Below, piece by piece: positions 23,030 to 63,440 of a DNA stretch of 64,000 nucleotides. The notes under the pieces were generated by a model, which saw nothing but the letters and a program-made list of their open reading frames with translations, was not told where the DNA came from and searched no databases. Source of the DNA: Octopus vulgaris (taxonomy: Eukaryota); contig OX597814.1 in NCBI GenBank assembly GCA_951406725.2, forward strand, positions 215,202,001 to 215,266,000. Direction: 5' to 3'. The position numbers were made by a program, and so were the translations under genes. How positions within the stretch are numbered: position 1 is the stretch's first letter; the number at the start of each line of letters is the position of its first letter.

Positions 23030-23225
23030 TAACGAAGGGTGCCGAAGCACCTACATTGCTAGAACTAAGATTTAAAAATCTTTTCATGCTGCACGAAGTG
23101 CACAATGTAAGTACACATAACCGTCTCTAGAATCACCAGATTAGGTCTACTTTTACCTATTCCATAGGCTTCATCAGTAGTGACTGCTCAAACAGTCTCT
23201 GGATTGGATAAGTTCGTCTGCCAGT
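23030..23225 (-). mobile_element. PLE pseudo-LTR-like fragment with a degenerate hammerhead
   Basis: Reverse complement of 23862-24085. Minus strand reads ACTA-CTGATGA-A-GCCTA..TAGGT-AAAA (GAAA mutated). Bounded by (TA)n. Confidence 0.55.
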
Positions 23226-23238
23226 ATATATATATATA

Positions 23239-23635
23239 TCTTTATATATAAAAGTGAAGTTGTGTGTCTGTCTCCTACGATTTAGATTCCTAACTACTCC
23301 CACATTTTGCGGTGCAGTTTAACCAAAACCGGGTATCTTATAGTCGTGATTCATATCGAGCCCTTCTGGATATTAGCGAGCGTCTACGATAAGTCTACGA
23401 TTTTAAAAAAAAATTACCATCATTTTTTCCATTTTAATGCATTGTTTTCGCTATTATATAAGGGAAGTAACTCTCTAAAAATGTCTACGATGAGTCAACG
23501 ATTTAAAAAAAAATTTACCATCATTTTTTTTCATTTTTAATGCATTTTTTTGCTATTTTTTTGCTATAACTCTCTAAAAATGCTTATATAGTTATTTCCC
23601 TTACAAACCCGAGCAACGCCGGGCGATACTGCTAG
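23239..23635 (+). mobile_element. Non-autonomous Helitron (copy 2)
   Basis: 5' TC, 3' GC hairpin plus CTAG, inserted between A and T; homologous and inverted relative to 22538-22934. Confidence 0.85.
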
Positions 23636-23708
23636 TTTACTATAAAAATTTATGACTGATTTAGCGAAATGCTAATGCGTAAAGTAAAAATTAATATAAA
23701 CAGCTACT

Positions 23709-24132
23709 CGCAATGTAATACCATAAAGGAAAAATTTAATCATCACTAAGTGTGACTAAGGTTGCCGAAGCGCCTACATTGCAAGAAGTAAGAGTTAAAA
23801 ACTCTCAATGCTGTAAGAAAAACGCAATATATATATACTCTGGCAGGAGAATTTATGGTGAAGATATATATACTAGCAGATGAAATTAGCCAAACTATCA
23901 ACCGTTTCAGCAGTTAATACTGAAGGTGCCTACAGAACAGGCGAAACCAAACTTAGTCTGGTGATTCTAGAGACGGTCATGGAGTGGATATCTCTCCTGT
24001 CAGTGTGTATATAATGCGCTCTTCTTAGAACATTAAGAGATTTTAACTCTTATTTCTAGCAATGTAAGTGCTTCGGCACCCTTAGTCATACTTAGTGACT
24101 TTTAAAAATTTCCTCTGTGGTATTACGTTGTG
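23709..24132 (+). repeat. Imperfect ~140-bp inverted repeat enclosing a degenerate hammerhead motif
   Basis: Arms 23709-23850 and 23993-24132. The loop contains CTGAAGG-T-GCCT..AGGC-GAAA (23920-23946). Confidence 0.7.
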
Positions 24133-24214
24133 GTATTACGTTTATGGTATTACATTGCGCCTATACATACACATACATACACACTTATATGCATGGACAT
24201 ACAAATATATGCAT

Positions 24215-24922
24215 ATAAATATCAAGGTAAGAATACCTATAAATGATAATACTATTTTAGATAATAATATTAACTACAATAATGATAGAGTTTTTTTAGA
24301 TAATAACAATAATCAAAATCATGATAAATTTACCCACTCTGCTTCGAGCAACAGTAATATAAGACTTCTATCCTCAAGTTATTCCACCTCTAATTATAAT
24401 GCCCCTAGATGTAATTGCAGAATTAAATCAAAATGCCCGGCCCCTGATTTATGCGGGTTAATTAACATAATCTACAAGTGCTCCGTAACCACAGATAATA
24501 ATAAGTTCTCTTATGTTGGATGTACTGTAAATTTTAAACAGAGATTGAATAACCATCTCTCATCCTTTAAATTACGTCATAAAGCTGATAGCACCACTCT
24601 TTCTAGTAAAATTTGGGAACTAAAAAACAATAATATCAAATATAACCTTAATTGGGAATTAGTCAGAAGAGCAAAACCCTATAAAAATAGCAGAGTAGGT
24701 TGCCAACTTTGCTCCATGGAAGTATTTGAAATACTAATGTATAGAAATAATGGAAAAATTCAATTAAACAGCAGAATTGAACTTGGAAATCTTGTATACA
24801 TGCTCGAGTTAAGACTCTTAAATATTTTAAATGATATTTTAAATGATATCTCAATTGATAACTGTATACTGGAATCACTTTGCATAAATTTTCACTTTGA
24901 CTTACATATCACTCCTACATAG
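24215..24922 (+). CDS. GIY-YIG endonuclease domain of a 5'-truncated Penelope-like element (probably non-functional)
   Basis: CNCRIKSKCP...C..NIIYKC...SYVGCT.NFKQRLNNH.SSF...STTLSSKIWELK...W...PY...CQLC..E...LNSRIE: the PLE GIY-YIG layout with a Cys-rich linker. The N-terminal part of ORF 24095 is low-complexity read-through. Confidence 0.85.
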   Translation: MNIKVRIPINDNTILDNNINYNNDRVFLDNNNNQNHDKFTHSASSNSNIRLLSSSYSTSNYNAPRCNCRIKSKCPAPDLCGLINIIYKCSVTTDNNKFSYVGCTVNFKQRLNNHLSSFKLRHKADSTTLSSKIWELKNNNIKYNLNWELVRRAKPYKNSRVGCQLCSMEVFEILMYRNNGKIQLNSRIELGNLVYMLELRLLNILNDILNDISIDNCILESLCINFHFDLHITPT

Positions 24923-60399: not shown

Positions 60400-60796
60400 T
60401 CTCTAGTTTCAGCTCAGAGCTGCGGCCATGCTGATGCACCGCCGTTTTGCTACACTGTTATTACTAAGAGCCTCCTCTAATATGTGGCATTTAGTGAAGC
60501 ATGGAGTTTGATATAGCTACCCTCATTTGCACCTCTTGCCGTGAGGTAGGTTCATCTGGGACTCTCGACAGGTAGAAGTCCAGCTTTGATTTAAAAACCG
60601 CTACATCTACTTTGTGCGAGTTCCTCCGACTCTTTGGGAGAATATTAAAAAGCTGTGGGCCCTTGAAACCCAGGCTGTTGCAGTAACTGGTCTTGAAGTG
60701 TGATGGCATTACCGGGATCTTTGGCACTATGCAGTGTCGTCCCGTTCTGGCATTGGTGTAGCTTTCAATGCCAAAATTTAGCACAATTCCTTCCAT
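60400..60796 (-). pseudogene. CR1/L2-like LINE 3' end: ORF2 C-terminus plus 3' UTR
   Basis: RTGRHC...NSLGFKGPQLFNILP...FKSKLDFYLSRVPDEP, followed by GGCGGTGCATCAGCATGGCCGCAGCTCTGAGCTGAAAC. Confidence 0.8.
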
Positions 60797-62524
60797 ATTT
60801 AAAAACAGTGAGATTTAGCACCTGTTTCTAGCAGGTCAAGTGACCACTACATCTCGTTGGTTCGAGAAAATACGATTAAAGTAGTAAGGTCGATCCAATA
60901 AACTGTCTCCTTCTGCAAATTTCTATTCTTGTTTCTATGTTGCAAAATTATTCCTCTCATCATAAGAGATAGAATAAATTCATTGAAGCAAAGTCTTAGA
61001 TTCAAACAACTGGAATTCCTTCTCAATAAAACAAGTATTAGTCCTAGCCGAAAATAAAGTTATTTCTTGAGAATTTTATTAATTTTCCCCATTCCAAAAA
61101 GTTTTTAGCATCAGAGCAAAATAAGTTTAAGCTGTCAACCATATATATTCCGCCTTCTCATGCTATTTTCACTGTCATTTATTCGCCTTTATAAATAAAT
61201 ATTACTGACCTGGTAGAGTTGTTAGAATATGGAATTATTGCACAAATGGTTCCAAAGTTTCGTATTCGTTTATAGTGCTATAAATGGAAACAAGTATAGT
61301 GAGTTGTAAAACTCAATACAGTAAGAACAGAAAGTATGCGTATTACACAGACTTCAACATATATTTACATACAAGTTCACTACTTCATATCACAGGAACA
61401 CAGTTTTGAAATCGTGCTCATGTAATGCAATAACCCTACCTTATTCATAGATAATATATCAAATTTTTCTTCAACAGCATTGGAAAATCAGATTATTTAT
61501 GCAATTTTTCGACATAATGATTAAAGATTTACCCATTTCTACGAATTGCGACTTGACACTCCGATAAATTATCCTTATCAGAATGTTCTTTACCTACACA
61601 CACACACACACACACACACACACACACACACACACACACACACACACACGCGCATACACACGCATGTATATATATATATATATATATATATATATATATA
61701 TATATATATATATACTATTTAAGTATATATATATATATATATATATATTATATGAGTGTATATGTGTATATGTGTGTGTGTGTATTATATATTATTATAT
61801 ACGTATACATGTATATATATATATATATATATATATATATATATATATATATATATATGAATATGAATATGTATATTTATAAAACCATATATTAAATATA
61901 AATCATTTAAGAGTCGGTTGTGCGACATTTCATTTATTCGACTCCAAATTACAAGACCCTCTCACCCCAAATAGTACATTCTACTTGCTAGCGGTGATCA
62001 TTCAATGTTGCCTTGTGGCTAACCATTTCACTTCGCAACCGCATCGTTCCATGTTCAAGAGTAAGAAAAGACTGATTTCTAAATTAGCTTCATGTCTGAC
62101 AAACATCTGTGTAAAATTTGGTGGATGGAAACTATGCCGAAGCCCGTCACGCGCGTATATATGTATGTACGTAGATACATACAAATATATATATATATAT
62201 ATATATATATATATGCGAATATACATACACTCACATATATTTGCGTGTGTATATCGGCATGGAGCAAACAAAATCGGTGCGGCGGACAAAAATACTTTGC
62301 AGTATCTAGTTACAACCTCGTTATCCGTCTTTGTATCATTGGATTGCATTTCACATCTTCAGTAAAACAGTATTAGACAAATTACTAGAATTGATATAAT
62401 CAACTAAAACTCTTCCAAGCATTGCTCCAGTATGACCACACTGAAATGACTGAAACCCTTAAAAGAATAACAGAACAGACTATATATATATATATATATC
62501 TTAATAGTAATAGTATGACAACAG

Positions 62525-62585
62525 AATAACTGAAGAGATGCCGGAGCAGATTTCTGCCCCGACATCCGAAACTCGGAGTTTTATT
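62525..62585 (+). ncRNA. Type I hammerhead-like motif in a (TA)n-bounded element
   Basis: Stem I AATAA/TTATT; CTGAAGA (62530-36); long stem II GATG.CGG.GCAG/CTGC.CCG.CATC; one extra C before GAAA (62568-71); stem III CTC-G-GAG; GUU. Confidence 0.7.
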
Positions 62586-62656
62586 ATGGCAACCGAATAA
62601 TTGTCACATATCATTTTACATGCATATATATATATATATATATATATATATATATA

Positions 62657-63023
62657 ACATTATATAAAAGGGCTTAGTAAAATAAATTAATTTGCCGCAT
62701 ACTGAACTTATTAGAAATAGCAGCTAAAAATCTTTTTTTAAAACTATTTCTAATACTTAAAGAAAATCTCTCTCATATAGTGTTTGCTTAACTCAACTCA
62801 CGAAAGTTTGGGGGTAAAGACATCAAAAAATCAAATGCAAAGGTTTTTGATTTTTTGATGTCTTTACCCCCAAACTTTCGTGAGTTGAGTTAAGCAAACA
62901 CTATATGAGAGAGATTTTCTTTAAGTATTAGAAATAGTTTTAAAAAAGTTTTTTAGCTGCTATTTCTAATAAGTTCAGTATGCGGCAAAGTAATTTATTT
63001 TACTAAGCCCTTTTATATAATGT
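62657..63023. repeat. Fold-back element, ~179-bp near-perfect arms and 10-nt loop
   Basis: Arms 62657-62835 and 62846-63023 with only 2-3 differences; followed by a unique tail to ~63120 and (TA)n. Confidence 0.92.
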
Positions 63024-63144
63024 AATAATTTGAATTCGCCTTAAATGGTCCCTTTGCATACTGAACACTTGGTGAAATTGATTAATAATTAATTAATTTT
63101 ACCCTCAATTGTTGAAATTATATATATATATATATATATATATT

Positions 63145-63440
63145 TAAGTTAGTTATGGCCGGTCTATAGATCTACCCTGGGTTTCACGTCCATAAAGGAC
63201 TCAGCTTCACGAGGTTTATTCAGACCCTAATGGCCGGCGGCCCATAACCGCTCTTCAAAGTGGATGGAGGTTATTGGTCATCGGCGATTAGGGTCCGTAG
63301 AAACGCCGTAAAGCTAAGTGCTTTATGGATGCGAAGTCCAGAGTTACCACATAGGCCGGCCATAATTATCTTTACCTATTTCCTTTACTGCGCTATAACT
63401 TAGGGAATGTGCTTTTCTTTCGGATTTATGATTTACTGAC
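63145..63440 (+). other. GC-rich rod-like hairpin (~215 nt) plus tail between (TA)n and (TG)n
   Basis: Continuous imperfect self-complementarity 63150-63367 (e.g. TTATGGCCGG/CCGGCCATAA, TCCATAAAG/CTTTATGGA, GACCCTAAT/ATTAGGGTC, ATAACC/GGTTAT). Confidence 0.85.

Follow-up and report, generated by a model that had tools for sequence, protein, structure and literature searches.

The hairpins in this window, the 64,000-nt stretch of Octopus vulgaris DNA analysed here, are very probably two-armed insertions of hammerhead ribozyme (HHR) repeats in TA runs, made by Penelope-type enzymes. Overall, the window is an ordinary stretch rich in transposable elements, and the parts of this picture are already known; what is new is the footprint of Penelope-like elements (PLEs) on non-coding retrozymes.

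Anatomy of the window inserts

Seven hairpins had been reported in an earlier note on this DNA, and arm-against-arm alignment confirmed all seven places. The arms match at 30/30 positions at 39908, 67/67 at 46626, 27/29 at 45210 and 74/100 at 63150, and with gaps at 23709 (118 matches, 25 mismatches, 3 gaps), 46153 (169, 10 and 3) and 62657 (179, 3 and 1). The reported proximity to (TA)n also held: of the 24 ends that 12 window inserts have, 19 lie within 12 nt of (TA)4, compared with 5.8% of positions across the window; the 23709 insert has no (TA)n at either end. Each hairpin joins the 3′ end of an interspersed repeat family to an inverted, shorter arm inside (TA)n. Ten families (A, B, C, D, E, E2, F, G, H and I) lie behind the window inserts, all with a type I HHR motif (Table 1). 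The hairpin had been taken for the mobile unit, a view that does not survive comparison among copies: the apex sits at different positions and the arms have different lengths, while both outer ends are fixed. Since this anatomy matches the published tail and twin-start signature of PLEs, the hairpins are best read as DNA insertion scars rather than designed fold-back RNAs.

Table 1. Inserts in the window (tilde, approximate position or length).
Positions	Strand	Family	Description
9661..9736	-	B	Fragment; 3′ half of HHR only; 90% identical to 62564-62617
23033..23224	-	A	Partial unit flanked by TA runs; HHR near 23130-23177, second core box altered
23640..24160		A	Two-armed; minus arm to ~23850, plus arm from 23852; HHR 23920 (+) in loop, A9 changed; old unit ~340 nt
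24223..26290	+	D	5′-truncated Hydra-clade PLE (by sequence fit); GIY-YIG endonuclease 24413-24790; intact HHR 26060-26135 in 3′ repeat
39845..39975		I	Long arm minus (unit 129-238), short arm plus (unit 129-172); copy without HHR
45143..45315	-	E2 (sister of E)	~25-nt inverted arm and arm with decayed HHR in loop
45350..45512	-	C	Short element; minimal HHR near 45450-45475; separate insertion without hairpin
46158..46608		F	Two-armed; apex inside the helix II loop (family HHR); tail on one side, to ~46608
46631..46836	+	H	3′ end of young 4,713-bp two-ORF PLE and 67-nt inverted arm; U3-A8 variant HHR 46699-46732 in loop; tail 31 nt
62499..62623	+	B	~25-nt inverted end piece and arm with HHR 62530-62579
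62657..63118		G	Minus arm unit 2-198, plus arm unit 18-292; copy without HHR
63143..63442		E	Two-armed; both arms with a decayed HHR; tail to 63442

HHR motifs are more frequent than in shuffled window sequence. A strict type I descriptor gave four matches against 0.15 expected (at most one in 40 block shuffles), only two of which lie in the repeat families (26060 and 62530); the others, 50177 (+) and 26539 (-), are unassigned. We judged the window HHRs against family majority sequences, and the list of motifs given earlier stood only in part. The HHR at 26060 is intact and that at 62530 keeps its core intact, with a GUU site, whereas the rest are altered, broken or partial: 45445 is minimal and carries a single change in helix II, 46700 has its family's U3-A8 core and a weak helix I, A9 is changed at 23920 and the second core box at 23171, and 9700 lacks the first core box. 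The strict descriptor did not recover 23920, 45445, 46700 or 9700. Beyond that list, 63150 has a decayed HHR in either arm, 45210 has one in its loop (minus strand), and each arm of 46153 holds half an HHR; copies 39908 and 62657 have none, although units of their families, I and G, have one. Most window HHRs are thus broken or absent: two of the seven hairpins lack one and four have a damaged or partial one. At the Rfam gathering score, no HHR was found in the window or in 12 loci, and at E ≤ 1 none was among the 150 of 275 matches listed, which were dominated by microsatellite-driven miRNA matches. Helix II domains are long in families B, D, E and F (31-57 nt); automatic helix counts are too low for helix II of B (4 bp in the descriptor result) and helix I of F. 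A core count of 16/16 for family F was discarded, because a core-like word within helix II inflates it.

Coding and non-coding families

The note had described a canonical HHR following a PLE GIY-YIG ORF; indeed, the ORF and HHR 26060 form one element, of family D, unrelated to the preceding 23709 hairpin. Elsewhere in the genome this family has full ORFs of 1,090 and 1,091 aa, each a single frame with the reverse transcriptase (RT) followed by a C-terminal GIY-YIG endonuclease (EN). The GIY-YIG domain scores 22.7 bits in Pfam against a cut-off of 22.6; Pfam returned 0 families on the full ORF, and the RT was assigned by motifs. Compared with the definition in the available portion of PMC8557442, the ORFs have the Hydra-clade DKT, CxCX5C linker, CxxC and CxH and no CCHH, so that family D would fit a Hydra-clade PLE.

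Family H has a 4,713-bp tandem period with an RT and a GIY-YIG EN, a Zn-finger linker and an HHR in the terminal repeat. Its RVT_1 match (E 9.4e-7) is slightly below the Pfam cut-off, and the copy examined has a frame break in the EN. Judged by its RT, linker and EN, it classifies as an EN+ PLE, which we take to be Neptune-like. Both D and H are accordingly predicted to be autonomous PLEs, and E, with a GIY-YIG remnant 150-210 nt upstream at two places, and E2 probably are too. Four small window ORFs gave no Pfam match.

Families G and I appear from their sequences to be young, non-coding, retrozyme-like tandem units. The G unit spans 545-563 nt and the I unit 362 nt, with 1,214 and 811 exact motif matches in the genome, respectively; a DNA search with the AT-rich G tail had given nothing before the exact motif was used. 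With the descriptor, both core boxes were present in 63/63 G HHR rows, and the I HHR, with a U3-A8 core and helices of 6, 4 and 3 bp, had 1,114 exact matches, against 0 for its canonical-core version. Upstream of the HHR, a same-strand PLE ORF was found at 0/85 G loci, 0/30 A loci and 1/94 I loci. This sole adjacent ORF was rejected as a coding parent for I, being decayed, with the junction inside its EN.

Family A shows a 319-340-nt period in 7/8 loci, an ORF in 0/30 and an intact core in 10/30, and is probably a non-coding retrozyme-like family. Family F, with a period in 2/5 loci (444 and 549) and an adjacent EN in 1/25, is probably a non-coding tandem HHR unit. The coding status of A, B, C, E2 and F was read from the 1.5-kb flanks of top-scoring copies.

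These assignments divide the proposal that several non-autonomous PLE families insert at TA. A PLE-type origin, TA targeting, the plurality of families and the non-coding nature of G and I (probably also A) were retained; not all hairpin families are non-autonomous, however, since at least two are ends of coding PLEs (H, and E with its upstream GIY-YIG remnant). Likewise, the expected homology to the 3′ ends of PLEs was found for H, the 3′ end of the 4,713-bp RT/EN element, but G and I gave no cross-family match to D or H, including the D and H 3′ regions.

Formation of the two arms

To describe the insertions, we mapped 49 G and 56 I loci out of several hundred, using position-ordered samples of the first 100 listed matches to the exact tail motif (for I, 56 of 59 clusters); being chosen by that motif, the samples lean to loci with the long-tail arm. 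Two outward arms, both ending at fixed unit positions, were present at 30/49 G loci (unit 283-292 and 188-206) and 37/56 I loci (235-239 and 172-180). TA borders 90/98 G ends and 96/112 I ends, against a background of 6-8%, and target-site duplications are unreadable inside such runs. Internal length varies, reaching 5.4 kb of tandem units (up to ~10 in one arm), and arms of several units stop at the two positions where single-unit arms stop. The two arms share a common source: an arm resembles its partner in the insertion more than arms at other loci in 27/27 cases for G (0.9% vs 5.0%) and 16/26 for I, with 5 ties, a likeness that could also come from gene conversion between arms. Family H insertions have the same two-ended form, with a 31-nt offset, and both orientations occur within 1.5 kb at 6/20 loci.

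We infer that a Penelope-type RT/GIY-YIG protein likely nicks both strands of (TA)n. Reverse transcription would then be primed from two fixed sites within a single source RNA, a chemistry borrowed from a lizard PLE studied in vitro, and the two cDNAs would likely stop at variable points and be joined by short complementarity, often at local palindromes. This would leave two arms back to back and, on one side, a tail of ~30-95 nt. Templates would be mixed, comprising autonomous PLE RNAs (D, H, probably E/E2) and non-coding tandem HHR units (G, I, probably A/F), the latter presumably copied in trans. The hairpin would be a DNA by-product, yielding double-stranded RNA only through read-through transcription. 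A more specific version is possible but tentative, with the odds somewhat against it: G and I may exist as self-cleaved, ligated RNA circles, a PLE protein dimer copying one circle from two starts on both nicked TA strands into back-to-back multimers, with the U3-A8 hammerhead of I active. If so, young G and I insertions would open the way to reconstituting the mobilisation cycle of retrozymes in vitro, using enzymes of a named family that the same genome encodes.

Copying in trans would be unnecessary if G and I were terminal repeats of unsampled coding PLEs, locally amplified as satellites. The mapped loci are only a part of several hundred, and units within G arrays are nearly identical (0.11% unit-to-unit difference within an array vs 3.4% between arrays; 7 arrays), a pattern also expected from local amplification. 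We nevertheless consider this unlikely: nearly all sampled ends, on both sides of the insertions, are TA, multi-unit and single arms share their end positions, and no ORF belonging to G or I was found. Long near-perfect inverted repeats between TA dinucleotides, and the 2,029-2,875 first-look candidates for 62657 and 46153, would also suit MITEs or foldback DNA transposons targeting TA (Tc1/mariner-like). Yet one arm has an extension absent from the other, the internal length is variable, the families carry HHRs, and H and E continue into PLE coding sequence, which leaves such elements very improbable; for 46153 and 62657, the asymmetric ends (one-sided tails, size not uniform) refute a MITE. 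An assembly or library fold-back artefact at TA runs is just as hard to credit. It could produce the 100% complementary arms of 39908 and 46626, which touch long TA runs and, like 46153 and 62657, are known here from the assembly, but dozens of loci show the same pair of fixed ends, the arms of old hairpins are only 74-81% alike, and a contig from run X15 spans 63158-63434, across the 63150 apex, with 3 differences. No contig bridging the 62657 apex was among the matches listed.

The model first proposed for these hairpins, in which the mobile units are non-autonomous, self-cleaving fold-back RNAs, long double-stranded and ADAR-edited, now seems quite unlikely. The hairpins do fold strongly, the loops of 23709, 45210 and 46626 contain HHRs, and the 62657 apex lies just 3′ of the predicted cleavage site of its family (1-17 nt away). 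The idea that the apex is the cleavage site is suspect, however, because it came from the top matches to 62657, which are biased to the shape of the query; in the position-ordered samples it was absent for G and weak for I. Arm ends fell at unit 1-8 in 6 cases vs 1.7 expected for I (p=0.009, uncorrected, with five windows tried per family and p=0.08 for -10..+10) and 2 vs 1.1 for G (p=0.29). The main hot spots are elsewhere (G 45-52, 9 vs 1.2; I 38-45, 13 vs 2.0), and 46/78 G and 51/90 I arms run past the cleavage site. Apex and arm length, moreover, change from locus to locus, and the HHRs of the hairpins are mostly damaged or missing. As for editing, G-U and A-C mismatches are balanced in old hairpins (8 vs 7; 7 vs 10), and no trace was found among rare variants of genomic G and I copies, which have no A>G excess (G, 23 vs 17 T>C, p=0.15; I, 10 vs 17, p=0.25). 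The idea of edited fold-back RNA thus has no support yet.

Part of the G stretch is present in contigs of 20/24 sequencing runs, none recorded as RNA. Matches to B and G exist in contigs from two runs whose source was guessed to be RNA, which gives no evidence on expression either way.

Comparison with known Penelope-like elements and retrozymes

Literature searches returned nothing on a C3U + G8A hammerhead variant and nothing joining hammerheads with Tx1 target-specific non-LTR retrotransposons, and the main text of the octopus repeat annotation (PMC13282606), in the portion available, has neither "hammerhead" nor "ribozyme".

Most features of the insertions have PLE precedents in the sections of the papers at hand. 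EN+ PLEs (Craig et al. 2021, PMC8557442) likewise have an HHR in the terminal repeat, insertion in (TA)n, an inverted 5′-truncated copy and a one-sided tail, with an offset of 30-40 nt between insertion ends. The G and I offsets, ~95 and ~62 nt, are larger. Family D shares with the Hydra-clade elements of PMC8557442 the C-terminal GIY-YIG without CCHH, CxCX5C, CxxC, CxH and DKT, but its ORF is longer (1,090 aa, with an asparagine-rich linker, an insert of a kind described for rotifer PLEs in PMC3846280). The minimal HHRs of PLEs (Cervera and de la Pena 2014, PMC4209133) have, like those here, a palindromic helix III, an additional base following A9, the U3-A8 variant of the core and opposite-strand pairs 100-700 bp apart; the long helix II predicted here from sequence alone in B, D, E and F differs from them. 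In vitro, Anolis Poseidon (Frangieh et al. 2024, PMC11167929) cuts and extends both DNA strands at AT-rich sites, two internal RNA start sites set the tail, and insertion proceeds without need of HHR cleavage. That assay used the element's own RNA, whereas here a like footprint is read from the DNA of non-coding units.

Animal non-LTR retrozymes consist of non-coding units, a few hundred nt long and arranged in tandem, every one of them with a type I HHR, and PLEs have been proposed as their mobiliser and origin (PMC7229834; 10.64898/2026.07.22.740005). The proposal dates from 2020 (Cervera and de la Pena, PMC7229834), the accessible text of which lacks the words "inverted", "target site" and "microsatellite"; a 2026 preprint (Li, Clavereau and Pollet, 10.64898/2026.07.22.740005), in its available part, builds the case on co-occurrence and pLTR homology. 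Circular RNA has been demonstrated for published retrozymes, whereas G and I are known here as genomic DNA; they differ further in being two-armed and TA-bounded with two fixed ends and, for I, in the U3-A8 core. These non-coding HHR units thus bear a footprint described as exclusive to PLEs (two fixed internal starts, a one-sided tail, an inverted second arm and a TA target). The copies that show it are young, number in the hundreds and stand alongside young intact PLE ORFs, which makes mobilisation in trans, and the choice between circle and multimer as template, directly testable. The fixed end points of G and I would then be the genomic footprint of how animal retrozymes are copied.

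Hammerhead families and other features of the window

The genome, presumably that of a cephalopod-like animal, comprises 2.8 Gb in 227 contigs, and the window (215,202,001-215,266,000), with a GC content of 35%, is abundant in microsatellites. All seven hairpins described in the earlier note were present, with arm identities ranging from 74% to 100%. The association of the inserts with (TA)n runs was also borne out, (TA)4 lying at 19 of the 24 ends of 12 inserts compared with 5.8% of window positions, as was an excess of hammerhead ribozymes (HHRs) over shuffled sequence: a strict type I descriptor matched the window four times, versus 0.15 times in shuffles. 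Two of these four matches (26060 and 62530) are family members. These were also the intact cores among the seven previously named HHR motifs, the rest being variant, changed or partial. Specifically, 46700 shows the U3-A8 variant found across its family and has a weak helix I, 45445 carries a single change, in helix II, 23920 and 23171 are changed in the core, and 9700 is half a motif. None of the seven was recognised by Rfam, either at gathering score or among the 150 of 275 matches listed at E<=1. The other two descriptor matches, at 50177-50203 (+) and 26539-26460 (-), are unassigned to any family and may represent chance or decayed motifs.

For each insert, we searched the genome DNA and scored the best 40 candidates, which gave ten HHR-bearing repeat families.

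HHR-bearing families and their representatives in the window
Family	Window position	Description	Identity among scored copies
A	23030, 23709	Old copies	70-81%
B	62499, 9660		93-97%
C	45350	Short element, minimal HHR	91-94%
D	24223-26290	5'-truncated copy of a young Penelope-like element (PLE)	98-99% (to other scored copies)
E	63150	HHR-bearing end; both core boxes in 15/26	
E2	45210	Sister of E, HHR-bearing end; both core boxes in 10/20	
F	46153	Long helix II in the family HHR, its loop containing the hairpin apex	
G	62657	Non-coding unit, 559 nt in locus L112	
H	46626	3' end of a 4,713-bp element	
I	39908	Non-coding unit, 362 nt	

The E2 HHR was read by eye, and the other nine families were represented by majority sequences, all nine of which combined a core with a cleavage base other than G and a helix III that is self-complementary (0-2 mismatches). 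The unit of family A (319-340 nt) was visible in 7 of 8 loci, and an ORF upstream of it in none of 30. Several family B loci had inverted end pieces, as judged by eye, and at two places a GIY-YIG remnant lies upstream of family E, by 148 and 209 nt. Intact family D ORFs of 1,090 and 1,091 aa occur elsewhere in the genome. In family H, 117 nt were identical in all 40 scored copies, and the HHR had 605 exact genome matches; one copy (L205:1776-5245) has a 479-aa ORF upstream of the RT/EN ORF and overlapping it, which may reflect a frameshift in that copy.

Families are stacked in common TA tracts (E2, C, F and H at 45112-46878; B, G and E at 62481-63479), suggesting that an insertion supplies TA targets to its successor. 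Elsewhere in the window, a 400-bp repeat flanks the 23030 insert on both sides in inverted orientation (22534-22938 and 23235-23639; copies 83% alike), constituting a larger potential hairpin; the copies presumably resemble a Helitron-type short element. We also observed a solitary 5S rRNA copy at 37409-37527 (-; 107 bits). A fragment resembling U2 snRNA, at 13390-13540 (-), scored 38.7 bits, under the gathering score of 46 bits. Three short ORFs, at 26276-26665 (-), 13461-14376 (-) and 60491-60814 (-), had no Pfam match; we take them to resemble transposase and retroelement remnants.

Two-armed, TA-bounded insertions in coding and non-coding families

A 35-mer of family G had 1,214 exact genome matches, in arrays of up to 13, and a 37-mer of family I had 811, its HHR having 1,114. 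The first 100 listed exact-motif matches per family, in position order, were merged into loci, of which 49/49 (G) and 56/59 (I) were mapped onto the unit. Outer ends were fixed at unit positions 283-292 and 188-206 in G, and at 235-239 and 172-180 in I. Both fixed ends occurred back to back in 30 G and 37 I loci, the long-tail end alone in 15 and 9, the short end alone in 3 and 6, and other arrangements in 1 and 4, respectively. TA adjoined 90 of 98 G ends and 96 of 112 I ends.

Since either arm may be the longer one, simple fold-back copying of the first arm does not account for the second. Both arms of an insertion have a common source: divergence between arms within a locus was below the between-locus median in 27/27 G loci (0.9% versus 5.0%) and in 16/26 I loci, with 5 ties. 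Units of G differed by 0.11% inside an array versus 3.4% between arrays (7 arrays); the two arrays available for family I are too few to inform. The same two-armed form recurs in coding family H, with an offset of 31 nt. Overall, whether the family is coding or non-coding, insertions are two-armed and TA-bounded, and each has a single source and a pair of fixed ends.

A two-ORF LINE of ~5.3 kb, with a zinc knuckle in ORF1 and an endonuclease and RT in ORF2, was observed beside the family I HHR (loci L381-L399; L209, L374, L376); we take it to be Tx1-like. In 19/19 exact matches (L381-L399), the sequence after the LINE 3' end is one and the same family I site, lying immediately upstream of the HHR (an exact 17-mer in 12, a first-letter variant in 7), and a duplicated target separates tandem LINE copies. 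This LINE looks as if it targets the retrozyme.

Origin of the hairpins

The earlier note proposed that the inserts could yield self-cleaved, highly double-stranded RNAs in a lineage known for heavy ADAR editing, a reading against which our results speak. Hairpin junctions differ between loci in the G and I samples, and arms extend beyond the predicted cleavage site in 46/78 (G) and 51/90 (I). Ends at unit 1-8 numbered 2 in G versus 1.1 expected, and 6 in I versus 1.7 expected (p=0.009 before correction; p=0.08 for -10..+10), and the strongest end hot spots fall outside unit 1-8. G-U bias was absent from old hairpins, as was an A>G excess from rare variants. For 63150 alone, a contig from sequencing run X15 spans the hairpin and continues into the right flank, showing 3 differences; therefore, this hairpin is not peculiar to the assembly.

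The two-armed form fits published PLE activity. One study shows that a PLE protein, once purified, can cleave AT-rich DNA and extend it on both strands, with synthesis beginning at two internal positions of the RNA that set the tail, and that PLE insertion needs no HHR cleavage (PMC11167929). Two others describe TA targeting, tails and truncated copies in inverted orientation as PLE traits (PMC8557442; PMC3846280). PLE protein would have copied source RNAs from both nicks, the two cDNAs would have been joined through short complementarity, and G and I RNAs, whose units share no sequence with D and H, would have been copied in trans; we consider this combination very probable. Multi-unit arms are compatible with a circular template and an uncleaved multimer alike, and rolling copying of a circle from both nicks is a somewhat doubtful proposition. 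Separately, a junction at L373:1420-3900 links a copy of family I with a PLE ORF that is GC-rich and decayed; the junction falls within the endonuclease domain and would stem from either insertion into the ORF or a template jump. Taken as a whole, the earlier note's observation is confirmed in part and its interpretation partly supported.

Comparison with known elements

Family D ORFs carry the Hydra-clade motifs tested for, and the element appears to work like a Hydra-clade PLE. The U3-A8 core reported for schistosome PLEs (PMC4209133) is also present in the HHRs of families H and I. All ingredients of this picture are already in print. In the main-text passages and literature searches covered, we found neither non-coding retrozyme units with the two-arm footprint of PLE twin starts nor any such unit with a U3-A8 core. 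At the level of DNA, G and I share the features of non-LTR retrozymes (PMC7229834; 10.64898/2026.07.22.740005).
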